From the sequence record MK327933.1: a stretch of DNA of 64,000 nt; one strand, 5' to 3'. A program made the position numbers and the translations under genes. Each line of letters opens with the position of its first letter. Within the stretch, counting starts at the first letter, position 1. Positions 13,316 to 34,560 of this stretch are shown here, one piece after another. The stretch comes from Escherichia phage vB_EcoM_G2285. The notes beneath the pieces were generated by a model, which was not told the origin of the DNA, did not search any database, and saw only the letters and a list, made by a program, of their open reading frames with translations.

Positions 13316-13622
13316 AATCTTCTATGATATCAGAGTCATATCCTAATGAAATCAAGGACTTTTTAAACTCTGCAATATTCTTTTGTTTCTTATCATTTAA
13401 AAATATGACAGGATAACGAATATTAAGTGAAGTGAATCCAGCACGTTTAGCAAGAGATACGATTAAAGGACGGTCATATTCAATCTTACCATTATTAGTG
13501 AGGACTTTATAAAATGTATAAGGAGCATTGAGCTCCTTTAAAAGTTTTGTAACAGTATAACATCCTGGACAACGTCCAACTTCTTCAGGGATGCCATAGA
13601 TTTCAATCTTGTTGTGTTCCAC
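13314..13622 (-). CDS. nrdH: Glutaredoxin-like protein NrdH
   Basis: 102 aa; redox CxxC motif (RCPGCYTV); immediately upstream of nrdG and nrdD. Confidence 0.75.
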   Translation of the reverse strand: MEHNKIEIYGIPEEVGRCPGCYTVTKLLKELNAPYTFYKVLTNNGKIEYDRPLIVSLAKRAGFTSLNIRYPVIFLNDKKQKNIAEFKKSLISLGYDSDIIED

Positions 13623-13624
13623 AA

Positions 13625-13837
13625 TTATTCCTTGCCAAGAACAGAATTCAGTTTATTAGTAATTTTGTCCAAACGTTCATTGAATTCGCTGGAGGATAAA
13701 CCCTTTTCCGGAGAAATTAAACTAATCACGAAAAATACAACAGTAAAAGGAATAAGAAAAATAGCTCCAACTGCCATAAACAAAAAGAACGTTACAGTTG
13801 TAAGAAAATCAGCTAAACCTTTACGAAATTTATACAT
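13625..13837 (-). CDS. Small membrane protein
   Basis: 70 aa; hydrophobic segment VTFFLFMAVGAIFLIPFTVVFFVISLI. Confidence 0.5.
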   Translation of the reverse strand: MYKFRKGLADFLTTVTFFLFMAVGAIFLIPFTVVFFVISLISPEKGLSSSEFNERLDKITNKLNSVLGKE

Positions 13838-13947
13838 ATTTACCCTTAATTAACTAAGCATTGATAAGCACTAAACTATATTGCGAATAAAATTCTGGAC
13901 CAAAACGAAAAATCATATCATTTATAGTATCCATAATGTAATTCAAT

Positions 13948-14418
13948 TTAATCATGTTTCCACACCCCATTGGTATTTAACCAAAGTCGCTGATTATCTG
14001 ATCCTCGCCACAGCTTTTTAGTCGGAAGATTTTTCTCATACTTCCCATCAATAATAACATCAACATATTTAAGCATTTCTAGCTGTTTAATATCTTCAAA
14101 CTTATATCCTGTCCACAACCAAATGCTTTTATTGGGATAAAGATTTTTTACTGTTTGAACAATGCAATGAATAACATCTCGGTTATCAGGATAGAGAGGG
14201 TCACCTCCGGTTATAGTCAATCCTTCTATATAATCATTATTCAAACATTCAATTAATTGTTCTAGTGTTTCACCAGTGAATGGAATACCATTTCTAGCAT
14301 TCCATGTTGATTTATTATAACACCCTTCACATTTATGCAAACAACCTGTAACGAAAAGAACGACCCTGCAACCAGGGCCATTCACAAAATCGCAAGGATA
14401 AAATCTATCATAATTCAT
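13948..14418 (-). CDS. nrdG: Anaerobic ribonucleotide reductase activating protein NrdG (radical SAM)
   Basis: 156 aa; cysteine cluster CDFVNGPGCRVVLFVTGCLHKCEGCYN; ATGA overlap with nrdD. Confidence 0.85.
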   Translation of the reverse strand: MNYDRFYPCDFVNGPGCRVVLFVTGCLHKCEGCYNKSTWNARNGIPFTGETLEQLIECLNNDYIEGLTITGGDPLYPDNRDVIHCIVQTVKNLYPNKSIWLWTGYKFEDIKQLEMLKYVDVIIDGKYEKNLPTKKLWRGSDNQRLWLNTNGVWKHD

Positions 14419-15746
14419 TGGTGTTTAACCCTATGCATTATTTCTTTATTTTTACCGAGATTAAATCCGCGTTCGTTCGGATTTCCCAAATAACCGCATG
14501 TTCTTCTTATGGTGTTCATCTTTTTAGGATCAGTTTCTCCGCAAACTGAACAAACAAATCCGTTTTCAGTAGGAGTCATTTCATGGGTACTTCCGCATGT
14601 AAAACATTTATCTACTGGCATATTAACACCAAAATAATCTAAATGTTGTGCAGCATAATCCCATACGGCCTCAAGACCTTTTAAGTTATTTTTCATATCA
14701 GGAAGTTCAACATAAGAAATGTGGCCACCTGTCGCAATGAAATGATATGGTGCTTCACGAGAAATCTTTTCAAACGGAGTAATATTTTCTTCTACTGAAA
14801 CATGGAAACTATTAGTGTACCAGCCTTTATCAGTGACATCCTTTACACTTCCATATTTTTCTGTATCAAGTTTACAGAAGCGATAACAAAGGTTTTCAGC
14901 AGGAGTCGAATATAAACTAAAAGCAAACCCAGTTCTTTCAGTCCACTGTTTAAGATGAGCATTCATTTTAGTTAAAATTTCCTGTCCAATATCACGACCG
15001 ACAAGAATATTCAATTCATGAATACCAATGTATCCTAGGGACACTGAACTTCTACCGTTTTTAAATAACTCAATTATGTCGTCATCAGGTTTAAGACGAA
15101 CCCCGAATGCACCTTCTTGGTAAAGAATAGGAGCAACAGTCGCTTTAACTCCTTTTAAGGAACTAATTCTACACATCAAAGCTTCAAAACACAAATCCAT
15201 TCGTTCATTGAATAATTCAACAAATTTCTGTTCATTGAACTGTGTTCCAATATAAGAATCTAACGCGATGCGAGGAAGATTCAATGTTACAACACCAAGA
15301 TTATTACGTCCATCAAGAATTTCATTACCAGTCGAATCTTTCCATACGCTCAAGAAACTACGGCAGCCCATTGGAGAAACTGGAACTGAAGAACCGGTAA
15401 TAGCTTTATTATTCTTAACCGAAATAATGTCAGGATACATTCTTTTGCTTGCACATTCTAACGCAAGTTGTTTAATATCATAGTTCGGATCATCTTTATA
15501 AAGATTAACACCTTCTTCAACAAACATAACAAGCTTAGGGAAAATAGGAGTTATCCCATCACGACCAAGACCTTTAATCCGATTTTTCAGAATTGCTTTC
15601 TGAATCATTCGTTCAGTCCAGTCAGTTCCAGTACCAAATGTAATTGTTACAAAAGGCGTTTGTCCATTTGAACTGAAAAGTGTATTTACTTCATCATTAT
15701 ATTCAGCATGAGTCGCAAATTCATGCTCGTTTATATGAAACAACAA
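14415..15746 (-). CDS. nrdD: Anaerobic ribonucleotide reductase NrdD, C-terminal part (exon 2; 5' boundary is ORF-based, not the true splice site)
   Basis: 443 aa ORF ending with the glycyl radical motif RRTCGYLG and a C-terminal Cys4 cluster (CFTCGS...CSVCGE). Confidence 0.8.
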   Translation of the reverse strand: MLFHINEHEFATHAEYNDEVNTLFSSNGQTPFVTITFGTGTDWTERMIQKAILKNRIKGLGRDGITPIFPKLVMFVEEGVNLYKDDPNYDIKQLALECASKRMYPDIISVKNNKAITGSSVPVSPMGCRSFLSVWKDSTGNEILDGRNNLGVVTLNLPRIALDSYIGTQFNEQKFVELFNERMDLCFEALMCRISSLKGVKATVAPILYQEGAFGVRLKPDDDIIELFKNGRSSVSLGYIGIHELNILVGRDIGQEILTKMNAHLKQWTERTGFAFSLYSTPAENLCYRFCKLDTEKYGSVKDVTDKGWYTNSFHVSVEENITPFEKISREAPYHFIATGGHISYVELPDMKNNLKGLEAVWDYAAQHLDYFGVNMPVDKCFTCGSTHEMTPTENGFVCSVCGETDPKKMNTIRRTCGYLGNPNERGFNLGKNKEIMHRVKHQ

Positions 15747-16491
15747 AATTTGGATAGTCCATAGATATGCAACGTTCTTTTATAGTGCTAGGATGAAAAT
15801 TTAGCGCTTTAGCTGCTTCTATATAAGACGTATACTTAATACCGTCAACAACCACATATTCAGGAACTTTATGAATAGTAGTCTTAATACTCAAAACAAG
15901 AGGATGAGTTTCGACTTCACTTTCAGTGCAATTTAAATATTCCGCTGCTTTTTTAAAACTTCTAAAAGTTTTATTTTTAAGCTTTATCGATACTTGTTTT
16001 TTACTTTTTCGACTATTGATATTATTTTGCACATGTTCCTTAGATCTTCCGTTTTTAGCATAATATTCAGCTACAGAAGATTTTATATTGTTTTTATGAG
16101 ATTCGGATAACACTTTACCCTTATGAGCATCTCTTAATTTTTGAATATGTTCTTCAGTATCCGGATGCTTATAAAACTTTTTACCGCCTATGGATTTATT
16201 TAAACATTTTTTGCTATAAAAATATTTACGTATGACCTCTTCTTCATGTTTTAATGCATCTTTATAACTATCAAATGTTTTTAAAATTATCCATTTAGTA
16301 GGTGTATCAGTTTTTAAGCGTTCATTTATATACTTAGATGACGTTGTGTAAGTTTTCCAGTTTGTGGGCTTGTTTTTAATTGTTCTAAATTTTTTATAAC
16401 CGATATAAATGTCGCCATTAGAAAACTTAACTAAGTATGTAAATGCGTCTTTATCTTTTATTTTAGTACAACGTCTTTTTATCCATTTCAT
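15721..16491 (-). CDS. Intron-encoded GIY-YIG homing endonuclease (I-TevII-like)
   Basis: 256 aa ORF inside the interruption of nrdD; N-terminal YLVKFSNGDIYIGYKK resembles the GIY-YIG motif; basic C-terminal region. Confidence 0.7.
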   Translation of the reverse strand: MKWIKRRCTKIKDKDAFTYLVKFSNGDIYIGYKKFRTIKNKPTNWKTYTTSSKYINERLKTDTPTKWIILKTFDSYKDALKHEEEVIRKYFYSKKCLNKSIGGKKFYKHPDTEEHIQKLRDAHKGKVLSESHKNNIKSSVAEYYAKNGRSKEHVQNNINSRKSKKQVSIKLKNKTFRSFKKAAEYLNCTESEVETHPLVLSIKTTIHKVPEYVVVDGIKYTSYIEAAKALNFHPSTIKERCISMDYPNFVVSYKRA

Positions 16492-16735
16492 TGTTTCACC
16501 TCGTATTCATAAGATAATCTTATTTATACAAGATGACTGCTGCATGTCGCCATGCAGATTAGACTATATCTTCATCTTTCGATGCCGGCCGTTTCGAATA
16601 GCATTAGCTTCTATTCTACACCGCTACATTCATCACGGTTAGTCGTTAGGCATTTAGTTCAAAAGAACATTTAGCACGGGATTGTCTACTAGAGAGGTTC
16701 CCCGTTTAGACCGGTTTTACATGAGCCTGAATTAA
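15740..16735 (-). mobile_element. Probable group I intron interrupting nrdD (boundaries approximate)
   Basis: About 1 kb separates the two nrdD reading-frame segments and contains the endonuclease ORF plus about 240 nt of structured non-coding sequence (16492-16731); arrangement as in the T4 nrdD intron. Confidence 0.55.
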
Positions 16736-17277
16736 ATTAACTCATACGCCTGGAATGCATCGTATACGTCTTTTTCTGTTTTAGATTGAGCATAATTCAA
16801 CGCATCAGCGATTTGCCATTTTTCTGCATCTTCAATATGTTTAGCATATGTGCGTTTAACATAAGGAGAAAGTACTTTATCTACATTCGCAAATGTAGTT
16901 CCGCCATACTGGTGTGAAGCAACTTGCGCGGTAATTTGTGCCATAATTGCAGTAGCAACACCGATTGATTTAGGAGTTTCAATCTGTGCATTACCTAGCT
17001 TAAATCCGTTTTCAAGCATTCCTTTTAAATCTACTAAACAACAATTAGTAAATGGAAGAGCAGGGGAATAATCAATATCGTGCACGTGAATAATTCCGCT
17101 TTCATGCGCTTTCATAATAAAAGACGGGACTATATTTTTGGCAATGTGTTTAGACACAATACCAGCCATAAGGTCCCGTTGAGTTGGAAAAACACGAGAA
17201 TCTTTATTAGCATTCTCGTTTAAAAGGTCTTTATTAGTTTTATGAATCAATCCTTCAATTTCTTTTTCAATTGTCAT
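16732..17277 (-). CDS. nrdD: Anaerobic ribonucleotide reductase NrdD, N-terminal part (exon 1; 3' boundary is ORF-based)
   Basis: 181 aa ORF MTIEKEIEGLIHKTNKDLL... running into a stop inside the putative intron. Confidence 0.7.
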   Translation of the reverse strand: MTIEKEIEGLIHKTNKDLLNENANKDSRVFPTQRDLMAGIVSKHIAKNIVPSFIMKAHESGIIHVHDIDYSPALPFTNCCLVDLKGMLENGFKLGNAQIETPKSIGVATAIMAQITAQVASHQYGGTTFANVDKVLSPYVKRTYAKHIEDAEKWQIADALNYAQSKTEKDVYDAFQAYELI

Positions 17278-17747
17278 TTTAAACTCTTTCTAAGCTGCTT
17301 CTTAAATGAAGCTATTAACTGTGTTTTGGTGTCAGATTCATTATATTCAAATCCTCTTTGAAGCATCTCAGCCATCATTTCCTCTTTTCCTAAACGAGAA
17401 AATTCCTTTGATTTATCTCCAACAAAATTAGGATGGATATTATTATCAGAATAATCTTGTTTCAAATAAGCAAGAAGAGATTCAAGCCATTCGAGGTAGT
17501 CGACATCACGACCTTTAAGACCAGAACGGTTGAACTTATGCTTCATTTGACCTTCTGCTGCGTTGCACAGATTACAGAGTAATCCACGAACTCTACCGGC
17601 TTTTGGCCCGTTTAATTCATGGTCGTGGTCAAGATGGTTACCTTGAACATCAGGGTCTAATTCACGGTGGCAAATAGGACACTTACCGTTCTGTGCATCA
17701 TAAAATTTTTGTTTTTCTTCTTTATATTTTGCGCCTGATAATAACAT
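17274..17747 (-). CDS. 49: Endonuclease VII (Holliday junction resolvase) gp49
   Basis: 157 aa; zinc/His-Cys box CPICHRELDPDVQGNHLDHDHELNGPKAGRVRGLLCNLCN. Confidence 0.9.
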   Translation of the reverse strand: MLLSGAKYKEEKQKFYDAQNGKCPICHRELDPDVQGNHLDHDHELNGPKAGRVRGLLCNLCNAAEGQMKHKFNRSGLKGRDVDYLEWLESLLAYLKQDYSDNNIHPNFVGDKSKEFSRLGKEEMMAEMLQRGFEYNESDTKTQLIASFKKQLRKSLK

Positions 17748-17777
17748 GATAAACCCTTACCTTAAATAGATAAGGGT

Positions 17778-17785
17778 ATTTATAA
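17778..17785 (-). promoter_or_regulatory. Late promoter TATAAATA upstream of gene 49
   Basis: Plus-strand TATTTATA (reverse complement TATAAATA) about 30 nt upstream of the gene 49 start. Confidence 0.5.
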
Positions 17786-17786
17786 T

Positions 17787-17966
17787 TTAGTAAACGTTAT
17801 AAAAGTCTCGATGAAAACGTTTATATTGGCGAATCATTTTCTTAGTAGGACGTGTTACTGAAATAATTGAAGTAGCCATAGTCGGATTGTTTGGAGCACC
17901 AGTCATAACAAATTTCCAGGTCTTCTCCCCGTTTTTTCTTTCAGTATAAATCGTTTCTGTTCTCAT
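17787..17966 (-). CDS. Hypothetical small protein (59 aa, below ORF-track cutoff)
   Basis: Own translation MRTETIYTERKNGEKTWKFVMTGAPNNPTMATSIISVTRPTKKMIRQYKRFHRDFYNVY. Confidence 0.35.
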   Translation of the reverse strand: MRTETIYTERKNGEKTWKFVMTGAPNNPTMATSIISVTRPTKKMIRQYKRFHRDFYNVY

Positions 17967-17975
17967 AATAAGCCT

Positions 17976-18407
17976 TTAACTTAAACATCTTTCTAAATAT
18001 TCGATGTATTCCGCTGCAGCTTGCATCAGATTACCTTCATAACCGTCATTATTTTCTTGACCAGCTAATTTAGCTAAAGCATAAGAAATACGTTCACCTT
18101 CGAATTCGCCAAGTCCACCATCACAAACTACTTGGTCAATTTCTTCGAGTTCATCTATTGAATGGGATTCCCAGAAGCACCAAAGAGAAGTATCACGGTC
18201 ATAGATGCAAAGTTTCTCACCTGTGTTCAACATCACTTCGATAATGCCATGGTCGCCATACCCATCTTCGGTAGTAGTACCAATTACCTTGATGATTGTA
18301 TCTTTCTTTAATTCAGGAAACTTATCTTGGAGTTCTTCATCTTCTTTAACAATCTTGAACCATTTACCGCGAGTTTCAGAAATATTCATAACCATACTCC
18401 ATATCAA
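17976..18407 (-). CDS. Hypothetical acidic protein
   Basis: 143 aa ORF between gene 49 and nrdC. Confidence 0.5.
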   Translation of the reverse strand: MIWSMVMNISETRGKWFKIVKEDEELQDKFPELKKDTIIKVIGTTTEDGYGDHGIIEVMLNTGEKLCIYDRDTSLWCFWESHSIDELEEIDQVVCDGGLGEFEGERISYALAKLAGQENNDGYEGNLMQAAAEYIEYLERCLS

Positions 18408-29256: not shown

Positions 29257-29795
29257 TCTTTTATTTCCAGTAGTTTATTTGATTTAAGGTAATTAGCCTT
29301 TTCTAGGACTTCAGAAGCATATTTACTTCCAGCACTTGTCTTCCATCCCGCATTATATGAGGATATAGCTTTTCTTATATCCCCGTTATGTATATTTAAC
29401 CAATAAGAAAATTCGATATAAGCCCATCTGGCTGAATTAGACCGCTTAGATAGCATTTTCTTAATTTGGGCATCAGTCATATTATAACCAAGCTGGTTAA
29501 TTCTTGCCCTCATTGTTGGTAGATAATTTTGGAACATTCCATACGCATGGTGACCTTTCTTATCTTTAAGATTAATACCGGCAGATGATTCCTGCCATAG
29601 TATTGCGGCCATTATGTATCCAAGTCCTTTCTTATGCATATTTTCATGCGTTTTAAATTTTCCATCCTTAGAAAACTGTTCCCCAAACTGATAAGCATAA
29701 TTCAAGTTATCGAGTTGGACATTACTAAAAGTATGCTCGGAGCTATGTGCTGATAACGAAAGAGCAAATAGACCAGCGAGTAGTGCTTTTCTCAT
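29253..29795 (-). CDS. Secreted lytic transglycosylase-like protein (SLT domain)
   Basis: 180 aa; signal peptide MRKALLAGLFALSLSAHS; catalytic-type motif LWQESSAG and AYGMFQ. Confidence 0.6.
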   Translation of the reverse strand: MRKALLAGLFALSLSAHSSEHTFSNVQLDNLNYAYQFGEQFSKDGKFKTHENMHKKGLGYIMAAILWQESSAGINLKDKKGHHAYGMFQNYLPTMRARINQLGYNMTDAQIKKMLSKRSNSARWAYIEFSYWLNIHNGDIRKAISSYNAGWKTSAGSKYASEVLEKANYLKSNKLLEIKE

Positions 29796-29803
29796 GTTTA
29801 CCT

Positions 29804-30262
29804 CTAGATTTTAATCACTGCTTTAGAAGCTTTTCCTGGTAGTCGTTTACTGTTAATAATAGCCATTCTACATTGAAGAGTCTTCATTTTGAATGCTGGA
29901 TTTTCGCGACAAACTGTAAGTCCTAACCAAAGATTTCCATCAGTTATTTCTAAACGGCCCGGGCGATATTCGACACCTTCGACAAAATCTTCATCAACAT
30001 CTGGACGTGCCGGCATTGATAAAAATTCTGCAACTTCTTTAACATGATTTTTTACTTTATGAAATAATTCAAAAACGTAATTCTCATCTATTTCTCTCTG
30101 GATGGCACGATCTAAGAGATGTTGAGAATACTTGATATGAAAGCCTGGTAGTCCAAGAGACTTTGCAGCATCTTTTATACCGGCATTTATTTTGCGGAAC
30201 TCCGTTTCAAAGATTCGACGGAGTTTATTACGGCGGATAAAAACGTCTGAATTGATAGTCAT
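29804..30262 (-). CDS. regB: Putative site-specific endoribonuclease RegB
   Basis: 152 aa ORF (RegB is about 153 aa) located between tk and denV; assigned by size and synteny, not by a motif. Confidence 0.45.
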   Translation of the reverse strand: MTINSDVFIRRNKLRRIFETEFRKINAGIKDAAKSLGLPGFHIKYSQHLLDRAIQREIDENYVFELFHKVKNHVKEVAEFLSMPARPDVDEDFVEGVEYRPGRLEITDGNLWLGLTVCRENPAFKMKTLQCRMAIINSKRLPGKASKAVIKI

Positions 30263-30270
30263 TTTGATTT

Positions 30271-30319
30271 CTCCTCTAGTTGACAGGTCTATAGTAACAC
30301 AACTAGAGGAGAAGTAAAC
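30271..30319 (-). promoter_or_regulatory. Early-type promoter with 11-bp inverted repeat able to sequester the regB Shine-Dalgarno
   Basis: Minus strand GTTTAC (plus 30314-30319); arms CTCCTCTAGTT (30271-30281) and AACTAGAGGAG (30301-30311); left arm contains the SD of the ATG at 30262. Confidence 0.5.
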
Positions 30320-30323
30320 TACT

Positions 30324-30581
30324 TTATTGATAAAATGGAGTTAAAGCCCAAGATTCTTTAGATACCATATTGGCGAAATGCCTCATCTCTTCGATTTGGC
30401 GACGACGCTGGTCAGCATAGTCTTCTTCGCCTTCTTCCTTACAATCTTCAAGGTCTTCTTCAAGATACTTTAAGTATTCACTACAAATTTTGTTGACCTT
30501 TTCTTGAAAGTCCAATAACCCAGTAATAGTAGAAGCCATTAGTATTTTTCCTCGGGTCGAAATACCGCACGACATGCCCAC
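30324..30581 (-). CDS. Hypothetical small acidic protein
   Basis: 85 aa ORF (71 aa from second Met MASTITGLLDF). Confidence 0.45.
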   Translation of the reverse strand: MGMSCGISTRGKILMASTITGLLDFQEKVNKICSEYLKYLEEDLEDCKEEGEEDYADQRRRQIEEMRHFANMVSKESWALTPFYQ

Positions 30582-30805
30582 ATGCTGGCTTCTTTTAGAT
30601 GTTGCTTAGCATACTTAAGAGCCTGCACTGCATCCATATCTTCTTTGGTTTGTTGCTCTGTTTCATTTTCTTTCAAGATATATGCTTCTTCAATCAGAGC
30701 ATCAAACAACAATCCAAGACGGACTTCAGCATCTTTAATAGCGTTCACTTTACCGATTTTATCATCGGTATGCGGCTTGTAGCCTTTGATGTCTTCAATC
30801 GACAT
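30539..30805 (-). CDS. Hypothetical small protein
   Basis: ORF 30539-30973 overlaps the upstream ORF by about 180 nt; internal Met (MSIEDIKGYKPHTDDK...) at 30805 gives 88 aa. Confidence 0.4.
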   Translation of the reverse strand: MSIEDIKGYKPHTDDKIGKVNAIKDAEVRLGLLFDALIEEAYILKENETEQQTKEDMDAVQALKYAKQHLKEASMWACRAVFRPEEKY

Positions 30806-31019
30806 AAGGAATTTCCTCATCTGTGGCAAGGTCATATTCGACCAATTGGATAGGCTCATTAATACCATATCCACGTACAGTGATATCAGTTGTCGGATAG
30901 TTTCCAGTAATATCACCCGTTCTAAATGCTTCAATGAATGATTGCTCGCCTGAGCAACTAAACCAGGCGGCAAAACATTTTAAAACATCTTCAGACCCTT
31001 CTATAATCAATTTAGCCAT
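30795..31019 (-). CDS. Hypothetical small acidic protein
   Basis: 74 aa ORF. Confidence 0.45.
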   Translation of the reverse strand: MAKLIIEGSEDVLKCFAAWFSCSGEQSFIEAFRTGDITGNYPTTDITVRGYGINEPIQLVEYDLATDEEIPYVD

Positions 31020-31381
31020 TATAGACTTTCAGTAAAGGTACGAGCGATAACGTCGCGCTGCTGTTCCGGAGTCAGAGAGTTAAAGCGAACTGCATAACCA
31101 GATACACGGATGGTCAGCTGCGGATATTTTTCCGGATGCTTAACTGCATCTTCCAGAGTTTCACGACGCAGAACGTTAACGTTCAGATGTTGACCACCTT
31201 CAATTTTAACTTTAGGTTGATGTTCAATTTCAATTTCACGGGCATTCAAACCGTAGAAAATTTCCGGGTCTACAATAGCGTCTTCTTTAAAAGTCTTAGA
31301 GACAATAATCCGGGCTTGAGTACCGTCTTCAAAATAAATAGTGCCTTTATGTGCACCTTCAAGAATTTGATATGCTTTCAT
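31019..31381 (-). CDS. Autonomous glycyl radical cofactor (GrcA/YfiD-like)
   Basis: 120 aa; C-terminal [60 protein letters not shown] contains the RVSGY glycyl radical motif and closely matches my recollection of E. coli GrcA. Confidence 0.75.
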
Positions 31382-31387
31382 ATAACC

Positions 31388-31696
31388 TCAATTAGAAAAT
31401 AAATTTATCCAAGTTTTTTCTTTAATCAAAAATGGGTCGGAATTAAACGCCATTAAACTTTGAGTGATTAATCCCTTAAATGGCCCATCAATAAATTCCA
31501 TTTTGAAATGCGGAATACTAGTCATCAACCGTGCATTAGGAGCAGTACAAAGAACCTGCTGCCCTGCGAACGGACCTTTAGTCAAACGATATCGTTTAGG
31601 TTTAAAATGGTAAATCTCATAATTTTCTACAAGAGCCCTTTTATTGCATACTGGGCTGTTATAACAATACTCAAAAACTTCAATAGTGGTCATCAT
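31388..31696 (-). CDS. Hypothetical protein with KOW-like GPFxG motifs
   Basis: ORF 31388-31744, start probably MMTTIEV at 31696; two GPF(A/K)G motifs (TKGPFAGQQV, DGPFKGLI). Confidence 0.4.
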   Translation of the reverse strand: MMTTIEVFEYCYNSPVCNKRALVENYEIYHFKPKRYRLTKGPFAGQQVLCTAPNARLMTSIPHFKMEFIDGPFKGLITQSLMAFNSDPFLIKEKTWINLFSN

Positions 31697-32280
31697 TGCA
31701 TTCCAATCACAAAAAATTGAGGACGAGCAATACCGCCGATGCAATATTTGCTTTTGCAGCAGTGCTGTACTGATTTAATATGGACATTGTAAATCTTATC
31801 CATATCAGGAGCTTTAATAGGCTCGTCAATTATATACAGAATACGAGAAAGCGTTAATCCACGGAATTTAGAACCTTCATTGCCAATAAAACTACGAACA
31901 GAATCAGTAAATAAACGGAATCGAATATCATCGCTAGAATAACGAGAAAATTCTTTTTTAATGTTGCCAACAGAAATTTTAGCATAAGCTGAAGTATTAG
32001 AAAGAACAATAACTGTTCCACCATCATACAGCCAATTAACAGCAAAATTAGTTACTGCGGTCGATTTACCTGATTGTCTGCCACCGTCTAAACGAAGTGT
32101 ACAGTACTGCTTGAGTACGTCTTCAAATGGTGGGACATAACCGTTCTTACAAATTTCTTCTACTCTAGCATCAGAATGGTGTGTAAAAGCATTCATCAGG
32201 GATAGATAAGGTCCAGTTAAAAATGTTCTCATTTTGTTCTCTCTAAATTTGGGCCATTCCGTGGCGCATGAATTGTCCAT
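31693..32280 (-). CDS. P-loop NTPase-like protein
   Basis: 195 aa; Walker A-like GGRQSGKST. Confidence 0.5.
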   Translation of the reverse strand: MDNSCATEWPKFRENKMRTFLTGPYLSLMNAFTHHSDARVEEICKNGYVPPFEDVLKQYCTLRLDGGRQSGKSTAVTNFAVNWLYDGGTVIVLSNTSAYAKISVGNIKKEFSRYSSDDIRFRLFTDSVRSFIGNEGSKFRGLTLSRILYIIDEPIKAPDMDKIYNVHIKSVQHCCKSKYCIGGIARPQFFVIGMQ

Positions 32281-32409
32281 TTCTGTATTTACCCATTACC
32301 GCACTTGGGCTCGACCTTATTACAGGTTGGCGGGAATCCCTCACAGAATCATGAGGTCCAGCTTGTTCCCATGTTATTTGAATGTAAATAGGCCTAAGTA
32401 TAGGCCTTA

Positions 32410-32988
32410 TTAATTACCACGGGCTGCATTAGCAACGGCGTAAGCGTACTGAACATTAGCGTCCTTAAACGTACCTTTAGAGGTATCTATTTCTGCCTTA
32501 AAGCCGCCTTTAGCCATAACATCTGCAAATTCTTTACGGAAAGCCATTGCATCAAGACCTTTCCATGTTGATTTATGCTTGGCAAATTCAAGACCGGCGT
32601 AGTTGACAGCCTTAGCTAATTTATTATCAATAACCCATTTACCTGCTTTAGGCACAAACTTCGGGCCTTTTTGTTTAGAGAACAGTTTTAAATTCCAGCG
32701 ACGAAGGTCACTGTCGGCTTTAACAAAAGCTGCATCTAAGTTACTAGCAACAACATCTTCAATATGAGCAAATTTAAGTCCGTCAACTTCAATATTTAGA
32801 TCGTTACGCCAGCGAAGTCCTTCCCAAGCGAAGGCTTTAAAATCAGAAGCCTTTGTAGCTAAGTACCGTTCAATAGGAGCAGTTTTAGGGTCAAAGCCGT
32901 TTCCGCCACGATAAGTCCACTCGTCCTTATTAATGCCTTGAGCTTTTCCTGCAAAGGCCTCGGCGATAAATTCTTTATATGTTTTCAT
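32410..32988 (-). CDS. ipIII: Internal protein III (capsid-packaged, injected)
   Basis: 192 aa; N-terminal capsid-targeting sequence MKTYKEFIAEA; basic, alanine/lysine-rich. Confidence 0.75.
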   Translation of the reverse strand: MKTYKEFIAEAFAGKAQGINKDEWTYRGGNGFDPKTAPIERYLATKASDFKAFAWEGLRWRNDLNIEVDGLKFAHIEDVVASNLDAAFVKADSDLRRWNLKLFSKQKGPKFVPKAGKWVIDNKLAKAVNYAGLEFAKHKSTWKGLDAMAFRKEFADVMAKGGFKAEIDTSKGTFKDANVQYAYAVANAARGN

Positions 32989-33052: not shown

Positions 33053-33313
33053 TTAAGCTTTACCGCCAGAAATAATTCCGAAGTTGTTAAAATCGTATCC
33101 AATATCGTCAACATCTACTTTAGGACTTGCTACAACATAAGCAATTTCACTACGTTTTGCATAGGTGTTGATTTCTTTACCATCGCCACCTAAGAAAGAA
33201 TACCCATTACGCTTTAATGAGCCAAAGTCTTCCGCATCACCAATGAAAGCTTTAACTTTAAATTTGGGGTCTTTGACATCTGCTTCAATGATAAATTCTT
33301 GATACATTTTCAT
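33053..33313 (-). CDS. ipII: Internal protein II-like
   Basis: 86 aa; N-terminal MKMYQEFIIEA capsid-targeting sequence. Confidence 0.65.
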   Translation of the reverse strand: MKMYQEFIIEADVKDPKFKVKAFIGDAEDFGSLKRNGYSFLGGDGKEINTYAKRSEIAYVVASPKVDVDDIGYDFNNFGIISGGKA

Positions 33314-33793: not shown

Positions 33794-34075
33794 CTATTTT
33801 TCTGAAGCGCCTGAAATATATTTTTCAAGACGTTGTTTCATTAGCGAGCCGTTCTTAGCGATTTCTTCCGGTTTATCGCACATACGCAACAAGGCTTCAA
33901 GCTTAGCGATATTGCTGGTACGTTCAAATTTGCGAGTATCTATCTTACTAGCAAGTTCAGAAATACGTGCTAATAGACTTTCGGCTTCAACCAAAGCTGC
34001 ACCTAGCTTAGTTGCAAATGTGTCAGTAGCTTCGTTAAGAATAGATTCTGATAAAAATTCACTATATGTTTTCAT
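33794..34075 (-). CDS. Internal-protein-like small protein with capsid-targeting N-terminus
   Basis: ORF 33794-34090; from internal Met [16 protein letters not shown] it is 93 aa; same MKTYxEF leader as ipII/ipIII. Confidence 0.55.
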
Positions 34076-34560
34076 ATATACGCTTTCCAAGTTCCTGTTT
34101 TAAATGTTGAGATTACGCGTTTCGCGCGATTAGGTGTCTGACGATACCATTTAGATTGGGCTAGATTTACTGCCGCTTCATCCCAACGTTTCTGTTGAAG
34201 AATACGAAGAGAATTAGTAAAACCGGCGACGCCTGCTACACCCATTTGGAAGACCATATTGACCAATGCACATCGACGAACTGCATCTAAAGAATCGTAT
34301 ACCGGTTTAAGTTTAGCATTACCCAAGATTCCGCGAACGGCTTTATCAACGTCTTCATTAAATAGCTTTTCAGCCTCATCAAGGGTAATTGTACCGTTGC
34401 ATTTACGTCCGATCATTCTGTCAAGTTCAGCTTTAGCTACGGCTAAAGACGGGTTCTTTGTTACTAAATGGCCTATGCCAATCGTCCAAAAGCCTTCAGT
34501 GTCTTTGTATAAAGTCGGTCTAAGACCTTCGTCATTACGAAGCATTTCAAATATATTCAT
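34072..34560 (-). CDS. e: Lysozyme e (endolysin, T4 lysozyme family)
   Basis: ORF 34072-34572; from [32 protein letters not shown] with catalytic Glu/Asp/Thr context; C-terminus ...[15 protein letters not shown]. Confidence 0.9.

Follow-up and report, generated by a model that had tools for sequence, protein, structure and literature searches.

The gene at positions 31019-31381 (minus strand) of the DNA analysed here, a stretch of 64,000 nt from Escherichia phage vB_EcoM_G2285 (sequence record MK327933.1) that we call the window, raises two linked questions. What does its small product do, and how has the second half of a phage gene come to be almost identical, at the level of DNA, to a piece of the host chromosome? 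A first-pass annotation of the sequence had recognized a glycyl radical cofactor gene of the GrcA/YfiD kind, and explained it as a captured host module joined to a phage-specific N-terminus.

The coding sequence is complete, running for 120 codons from an ATG start to a TAA stop (taken from the list of open reading frames). A Shine-Dalgarno sequence, GAGG, can be read at 31386-31389 (minus), located 4 nt 5' of the ATG, and overlaps the TGA stop codon of the upstream ortholog of T4 vs.7 (ORF listed as 31388-31744). At the other end the stop codon shares bases with the ATG of the vs.5 ortholog that follows (30795-31019), in the sequence ATAATG, and the gene is a member of a densely packed leftward operon. 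In a scan for promoters and terminators the number of promoter-like sites around vs.6 was at chance level (9 found, 10.9 expected).

Aligned with T4 (MT984581 63546-63908) the gene is 93.7% identical with 363/363 nt covered, and the protein shares 113 of its 120 residues with T4 Y06I, all seven differences falling in the N-terminal half. The closest relative is the gene of phage JM17 (99.2% nt identity), and at least 80% of the window gene is covered in 919 phage records. The gene order of T4 is vs.8, vs.7, vs.6, vs.5, with denV on the upstream side of vs.6 and regB and tk on its downstream side, and the ORFs of the window follow the same order, with denV-like, tk-like and lysozyme-like ORFs included. 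Judged by full-length identity and by its position between vs.7 and vs.5, the ORF is the Tequatrovirus ortholog of T4 vs.6 (Y06I), a gene that is already known together with its function. Many phage records (hundreds of genomes) already annotate the vs.6 gene as 'autonomous glycyl radical cofactor GrcA'.

The family assignment is in good accord with this. The Pfam domain Gly_radical (PF01228) matches residues 60-101 (E 2e-18), and the best NCBIfam match is to the GrcA equivalog TIGR04365, where residues 18-120 align with profile positions 23-126. The score of 159.1 bits is lower than the curated equivalog cut-off of 170, a shortfall that results from the divergence of the N-terminal half. The best match in the PDB is the NMR structure of E. 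coli YfiD (6OWR; residues 21-120, E 2e-42), followed by pyruvate formate-lyase, in which residues 57-120 align with PflB 696-759 (E 3e-26). Like GrcA/YfiD the protein stands alone, having its own start codon, Shine-Dalgarno sequence and stop within a length of 120 aa; it carries the Gly_radical domain with the RVSGY motif, and is collinear with GrcA along its full length, from the TIGR04365 alignment and the comparison of N-terminal halves described below. On these alignments the window protein is a GrcA homolog and functional analog that lies outside the boundary of the curated bacterial equivalog, and the gene identification made in the first-pass annotation stands. The RVSGY glycyl radical motif comprises residues 92-96 (31094-31108, minus; from the translation and coordinates). 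Within it Gly95 (codon 31099-31097) is the radical glycine, the counterpart of G102 in GrcA and G734 in PflB.

The radical site of GrcA is G102, from which the radical path leads to C419 of PflB (PMC12338860). E. coli YfiD and T4 Y06I are the sole two validated spare-part proteins for oxygen-cleaved PFL, and both reactivate the cleaved enzyme with a radical installed by PFL-AE (PMC8683613). The same paper cites Wagner et al. (2001) for the reconstitution of PFL by T4 Y06I, and likewise for YfiD. Residues 1-60 of YfiD are disordered in solution, yet they aid binding and activation (PMC8683613). The statement in the first-pass annotation that T4 carries such a gene, with a role in rescuing PFL, is borne out by the ortholog itself. 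By analogy with the T4 protein, the window protein would be an autonomous glycyl radical cofactor of the GrcA type. On the basis of the experiments with the T4 protein and with E. coli YfiD/GrcA, the host activase PflA would install the radical on Gly95, and the C-terminal domain would fill the site left empty in host PflB after oxygen has cleaved off its C-terminus. The radical would then be passed to C419 of PflB, so that the output of acetyl-CoA and formate is regained, with the N-terminal half assisting binding and activation. We infer that the benefit of vs.6 to the phage would be to sustain fermentative energy metabolism in the infected cell, in the microaerobic gut, after host expression has been shut off.

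The spare radical domain might instead serve NrdD, the phage's own anaerobic ribonucleotide reductase. NrdD belongs to the glycyl radical enzymes as well, it is encoded together with NrdG in the same window, and an older phage genomics paper proposed a role in nucleotide metabolism. We consider this target very unlikely. The radical domain is identical to that of host GrcA and matches PflB, no NrdD structure is found among the PDB matches at E <= 0.001, and the T4 ortholog reconstitutes PFL according to the citation given above. Moreover the genes are not neighbors. The first-pass annotation had set vs.6 beside nrdD/nrdG as part of an anaerobic-metabolism toolkit, but nrdDG, located on the same strand, is separated from vs.6 by 13.7 kb and by many unrelated genes (gene 49 and the tk, vs and regB orthologs among others), so that the link is conceptual only. 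nrdG is located at 13948-14418 (minus), and nrdD is divided into two ORFs (14415-15746 and 16732-17277, minus). Between the two parts of nrdD lies an ORF of 256 aa resembling a GIY-YIG/NUMOD1 homing endonuclease (15721-16491), and gene 49 is at 17274-17747. A split nrdD with an endonuclease ORF is as expected for an intron-interrupted gene; a search of 13500-18000 gave no group I intron at the Rfam gathering threshold.

We return to the PflB-directed cofactor and to the sequence of its radical domain. Residues 61-120 are those of E. coli GrcA 68-127 without exception (60/60), which confirms the first-pass annotation on the last 60 or so residues, and the correspondence extends to the DNA. Gene nt 179-356 (codons 60-119; 31026-31203, minus), encoding the PFL-like glycyl radical domain, form a patch of Escherichia grcA sequence in which 176 of 178 nt are identical to E. 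coli grcA, the mismatches being located at 31187 and 31100. Both changes are private to the window and synonymous, and the T4 patch is identical at 178/178. When aligned by codons, 176 of the last 180 nt are identical (E. coli grcA, L001 447-830). The near-identity ends abruptly at both borders, breaking down at gene nt 178 (5') and nt 357 (3'). The nucleotide alignment that the first-pass annotation had suggested thus gives near-identity over 178 nt, and not similarity at the level of the motif alone, and its estimate of a junction at about 31200 was right to within a few bases. Beyond the patch the gene ends with phage-type sequence comprising the third base of codon 119, codon 120 and the stop codon (AG-T CTA TAA; 31019-31025, minus), with mismatches at gene nt 357 and 360. 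The ending CTA TAA is common to the window gene and a Klebsiella phage discussed below.

The donor can be specified to the level of the genus. Over the 180 nt of the C-terminal half the DNA identity is 97.8% with Escherichia and 91.7% with Citrobacter amalonaticus, falling to 86-90% for other genera that encode the same 60 residues (80 bacterial loci/species listed, K. pneumoniae being absent among them). The GC content is 0.35 in the N-terminal half and 0.50 in the patch (165-nt core), the average for the window being 0.37. When window 6500-56400 was compared with 5,426 complete E. coli genomes by megablast the sole match was the patch, and the 10,839 matching places equal those found with a 183-nt query alone. 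The patch is present at 95% or greater identity to E. coli grcA in 638 phage records, and in every one of the matches listed the 5' end falls at grcA nt 199-202. From these comparisons the C-terminal half of the gene is host DNA, and specifically that of Escherichia. Contamination or chimeric assembly was considered and rejected; the patch keeps the reading frame and lies between stretches of phage sequence in over 600 independent phage records, both T4 references included.

Some other records found in this comparison deserve comment. Escherichia phage OES_C-2 (L164 529-885) has a vs.6 ortholog of 118 aa, with an in-frame deletion of 6 nt in the N-terminal half. Its last codons, AGC CTG, are E. 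coli-like, and with 184/185 nt identical to E. coli grcA it is the closest phage copy seen. The K. pneumoniae grcA used below was taken from PLSDB records labelled as plasmid. Four PLSDB 'plasmids', CP125156.1 (5.37 Mb) and NZ_OL790696.1, NZ_CP141089.1 and NZ_CP134663.1 (4.8-4.9 Mb), are the size of chromosomes and carry the chromosomal grcA, and the plasmid label would seem to be wrong.

Could the identity have been maintained without recombination? The whole gene might have been captured once, after which the disordered N-terminal half drifted and the C-terminal half was kept the same as the host's through a shared codon bias and purifying selection. The same 60 C-terminal residues do occur in many enterobacterial genera, the codons of grcA are strongly biased, and the disorder of YfiD residues 1-60 in solution (PMC8683613) would fit with such drift. 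Yet selection on the protein leaves synonymous sites free, and bacteria having the identical 60 aa are 86-92% identical as DNA; phage clades (L014-L016) encode the identical protein at 82.8% DNA identity. A step in GC content from 0.35 to 0.50-0.57 at the junction is equally difficult to reconcile with constraint alone, as are the distribution of synonymous sites in Klebsiella phages and the comparison of Tequatrovirus sublineages, both presented below. We regard an origin by constraint alone as extremely improbable.

Gene nt 1-178 (codons 1-60; 31204-31381, minus) comprise the phage-type 5' part. This is AT-rich (GC 0.35) and about 46-50% identical to E. coli grcA in nucleotide sequence, with 19 of 60 amino acids identical. 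Profiles of the N-terminal halves alone were constructed from 8 diverse T4-like phages (A1) and 10 bacterial GrcA proteins (A2), and hhalign matched one with the other with a probability of 95.9% (E 5.7e-9, 50 columns). The bacterial invariants R30, K35, D41, R55, E56, P63 and V65 are each matched by an identical phage residue. By these alignments the phage N-terminal half is homologous to, and collinear with, the N-terminus of bacterial GrcA, and is best described as a diverged GrcA N-terminal region. The same full-length layout is found in other T4-like genera, in T5-like phages and in jumbo phages, where the segment encoding the radical domain is 70-87% identical to any sampled bacterial grcA (genes from IMG/VR). 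For the GrcA genes of the T5-like, jumbo and other IMG/VR phages no near-identical bacterial donor was found among the sampled loci. Since the N-terminal halves are homologous and the full-length layout exists in clades that have no patch, the ancestral phage gene was already a full-length homolog of grcA, and the host-identical stretch is therefore a later replacement inside that gene.

The proposal that a host C-terminal module was fused by illegitimate recombination to an unrelated, phage-specific N-terminus, creating a new chimera, should be viewed against the same data. The sharp fall in nt identity at gene nt 178/179, from about 99% to about 50%, would be expected of a fusion, and the N-terminal half alone gives only a marginal match to the family HMM of GrcA (E 0.054). 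Nevertheless the N-terminal halves are homologous and collinear with their invariant residues matched, the full-length architecture is already present in phage clades that lack a host-like patch, and the phage-type codons 3' of the patch fit a replacement tract and not the fusion of an end. We consider fusion unlikely. Of the original account, the part assigning the C-terminal half to the host holds, and indeed can be narrowed to Escherichia DNA, while the phage-specific N-terminus gives way to a diverged GrcA sequence and the fusion to replacement of a segment.

Among the IMG/VR and related loci the T5-like phages (L045-L071; 104-122 kb) and a jumbo phage (L028; 346 kb) encode full-length GrcA-like proteins that share the RVSGY domain and have very different N-terminal halves; none is closer than about 78% DNA identity to any sampled bacterial grcA. 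Several IMG/VR 'viral' contigs (L072-L081) contain ordinary 3' regions of bacterial pflB, and another (L031) has a full-length grcA of bacterial type. These probably represent transducing fragments or host sequence that was binned as viral.

A second instance of segment replacement is found in T4-like phages of Klebsiella. The N-terminal half of the vs.6 gene of Klebsiella phage vB_KpnM_Wolf_ER13 (L163) is 73% identical in nucleotide sequence to that of the window. The core of its patch is identical at 159/165 nt to grcA of K. pneumoniae (L165) and at 145/165 to that of E. coli, and for the window the corresponding values are 163/165 with E. coli and 143/165 with K. pneumoniae. In a four-taxon comparison of the patch the informative sites divide 17:0:0 in favor of (E. 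coli phage, E. coli)|(Klebsiella phage, K. pneumoniae). All 17 of these sites pair each phage with its own host, and they are mostly synonymous, contrary to the expectation from protein constraint. In the N-terminal half the division is 59:3:2 in favor of (phage, phage)|(bacterium, bacterium). The opposing patterns at the two sets of sites lead to the conclusion that there were at least two independent events of transfer from host to phage. The direction follows from the bacterial genes, since those of E. coli and K. pneumoniae differ evenly in their two halves (84% and 88% identical), and from the GC content of the patch, which is that of the host; transfer from phage to host is ruled out on the same grounds.

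The K. pneumoniae patch is present at 95-99% identity in 106 phage records, spanning grcA nt 202-369/374, and in viral contig L029 the core of the radical domain has 98.2% identity with K. pneumoniae grcA. When the grcA genes of Salmonella and Enterobacter were compared with all phages, no phage patch at 95% identity or above was found, and the phenomenon is clearly seen in only two host genera, Escherichia and Klebsiella. In L029 itself (IMGVR_UViG_2974754850_000001; T4-like, 167 kb) the vs.6 gene at 1501-1862 has a deletion of 1 nt in the N-terminal half that breaks the reading frame, so that the gene is a pseudogene unless the sequence is in error.

We consider it highly probable that the gene combines the cofactor function of T4 vs.6/Y06I with an origin by gene conversion, in which host sequence was written into an old, full-length phage homolog. 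The T4-like phages would have carried a full-length homolog of grcA for a long time, whose N-terminal half today retains about 30% identity with that of the bacterial protein. In the lineage infecting Escherichia the 178-nt stretch encoding the radical domain would have been overwritten by homologous recombination with the chromosomal grcA, the conversion tract being limited on both sides by the extent of the homology between phage and host. The same replacement would have occurred independently in the T4-like phages of Klebsiella, with K. pneumoniae grcA as donor. The putative route is homologous recombination of the UvsX type, brought about by the phage with fragments of host DNA.

How often this has occurred can be approached by comparison of two sublineages of Tequatrovirus, one comprising T4 and four other phages (L005-L008), the second the window and two others (L003, L004). 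The window falls in the second sublineage as defined by the N-terminal half, where JM17 is its closest relative. Between the sublineages the flanking sequence is about 50-93% identical and the N-terminal half 87-92%, while the patch is 96.5-99.5% identical, the highest value in 3.4 kb. Such a contrast within a single gene is not expected of purifying selection on the protein. The C-terminal half has fewer synonymous differences, significantly so for many pairs of phages (Fisher p down to 0.0003).

The patch may have been repeatedly refreshed from the host chromosome in an ongoing process of conversion, or acquired once and then spread from phage to phage; we give repeated refreshment slightly less than an even chance. 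In its favor, the patch remains 98-100% identical to E. coli while the N-terminal halves differ by about 10% and the flanks by up to about 50%. Most of the variants in the patch occur in one phage only, in a star-like arrangement around the E. coli sequence. The 3' ends also vary, with AGC CTG in OES_C-2, AGT TTG in T4 and AGT CTA in the window. Two variants coincide with natural alleles of Escherichia, in that nt 192G of L007 corresponds to 213G of O157 grcA, and nt 282T of the window to 303T of Escherichia sp. MOD1. Against this, both coincidences are third-position transitions that might be homoplasies (p about 0.02-0.04, a rough and post hoc value), the constant 5' end among the matches listed is also expected from one event, and AGT at codon 119 is common to 7/8 phages. 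Recombination between phages in a mosaic region could equally spread one patch.

If refreshment does recur, the segment encoding the radical domain would act as a 'homology trap', being re-copied from the chromosome of whichever host genus is current, Escherichia for Tequatrovirus and Klebsiella for the Klebsiella T4-like phages. We advance this tentatively, as a possibility falling just short of evens. Were it true, nature would provide direct evidence that T-even phages still recombine with chromosomal genes of the host, even though these phages are strictly lytic and break down host DNA, and the patch would constitute a sequence record of the real host of a lineage. The patch may also be selectively neutral, since phage clades with C-terminal halves that are not host-like manage without an exact match.

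The region surrounding vs.6 is itself variable. Between vs.8 and vs.4 (29519-32881) the identity between the two sublineages falls to about 50-80% along much of the genes next to vs.6, part of vs.7 and the vs.5/vs.4 side among them. Inside each sublineage the identity is 93-100%, and the region may be described as mosaic and hyperplastic.

The relationship to known systems can be stated as follows. T4 Y06I has the same length of 120 aa and the same vs.7/vs.5 setting downstream of denV, and both genes carry the host patch; they differ by 19 nt in the N-terminal half, and the last codon is TTG in T4 and CTA in the window. E. coli GrcA/YfiD (TIGR04365, IPR011140, 6OWR) is likewise a small stand-alone protein with the same RVSGY site and a collinear N-terminal half. 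The window protein differs from it in being seven residues shorter and in its low identity over the N-terminal half (19/60), and its gene lies in an AT-rich operon of a lytic phage whereas E. coli grcA lies between ung and eamB. The C-terminal glycyl radical domain of PflB (696-759; PDB 1H16, 2PFL) is the segment for which the spare part substitutes. In contrast to PflB the window domain is not joined to a catalytic body formed by a 10-stranded barrel, and its sequence is of the GrcA type, unlike the PflB-type TKEQQQDVITRTFTQSM.

A parallel for the mode of evolution is found in cyanophages. Intragenic recombination between host and phage copies of psbA/psbD was reportedly described by Zeidner in 2005. 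These are also metabolic genes of T4-like phages that exchange segments with the host copy. Host-phage intragenic recombination, patchy %G+C and conflicting phylogenies within the gene have been described for cyanophage psbA and psbD (Sullivan et al. 2006, PMC1484495). Uneven %G+C and discordant phylogenies are the marks of the exchange in vs.6 as well. The patch in vs.6 differs in being short (178 nt), with sharp ends at the limits of homology and 99-100% identity to the donor, and in occurring in the T-even phages of enterobacteria including T4 itself. In the literature searched we found no earlier account of host-genus-specific grcA patches of 96-100% identity, or of the evolution of vs.6, although they may be described elsewhere.

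As a gene vs.6 has no novelty, and the recombination patch adds modest interest. It offers a clean, small and experimentally tractable case of gene conversion from a host to a lytic phage, which could be used to measure the frequency of exchange, and the host association of a phage might be deduced from its sequence. Whether an exact match of the radical domain matters for the rescue of host PflB likewise becomes testable.

Some further features were observed close to the gene. Over the whole region scanned there were 6 terminator-like sites, where 2.2 were expected. A perfect palindromic hairpin of 7 bp (of the type AGGCCT-N4-AGGCCT) is found at 32390-32407, just 3' of the ORF at 32410-32988, and scores as terminator-like on both strands. 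This ORF and those at 33053-33313 and 33794-34090 (all minus) have similar N-termini, for example MKTYKEFIAEA and MKMYQEFIIEA, which we take to resemble the capsid-targeting leader of the T4 internal proteins. The number and order of these three leader-like ORFs differ from the ipII/ipIII arrangement of T4.
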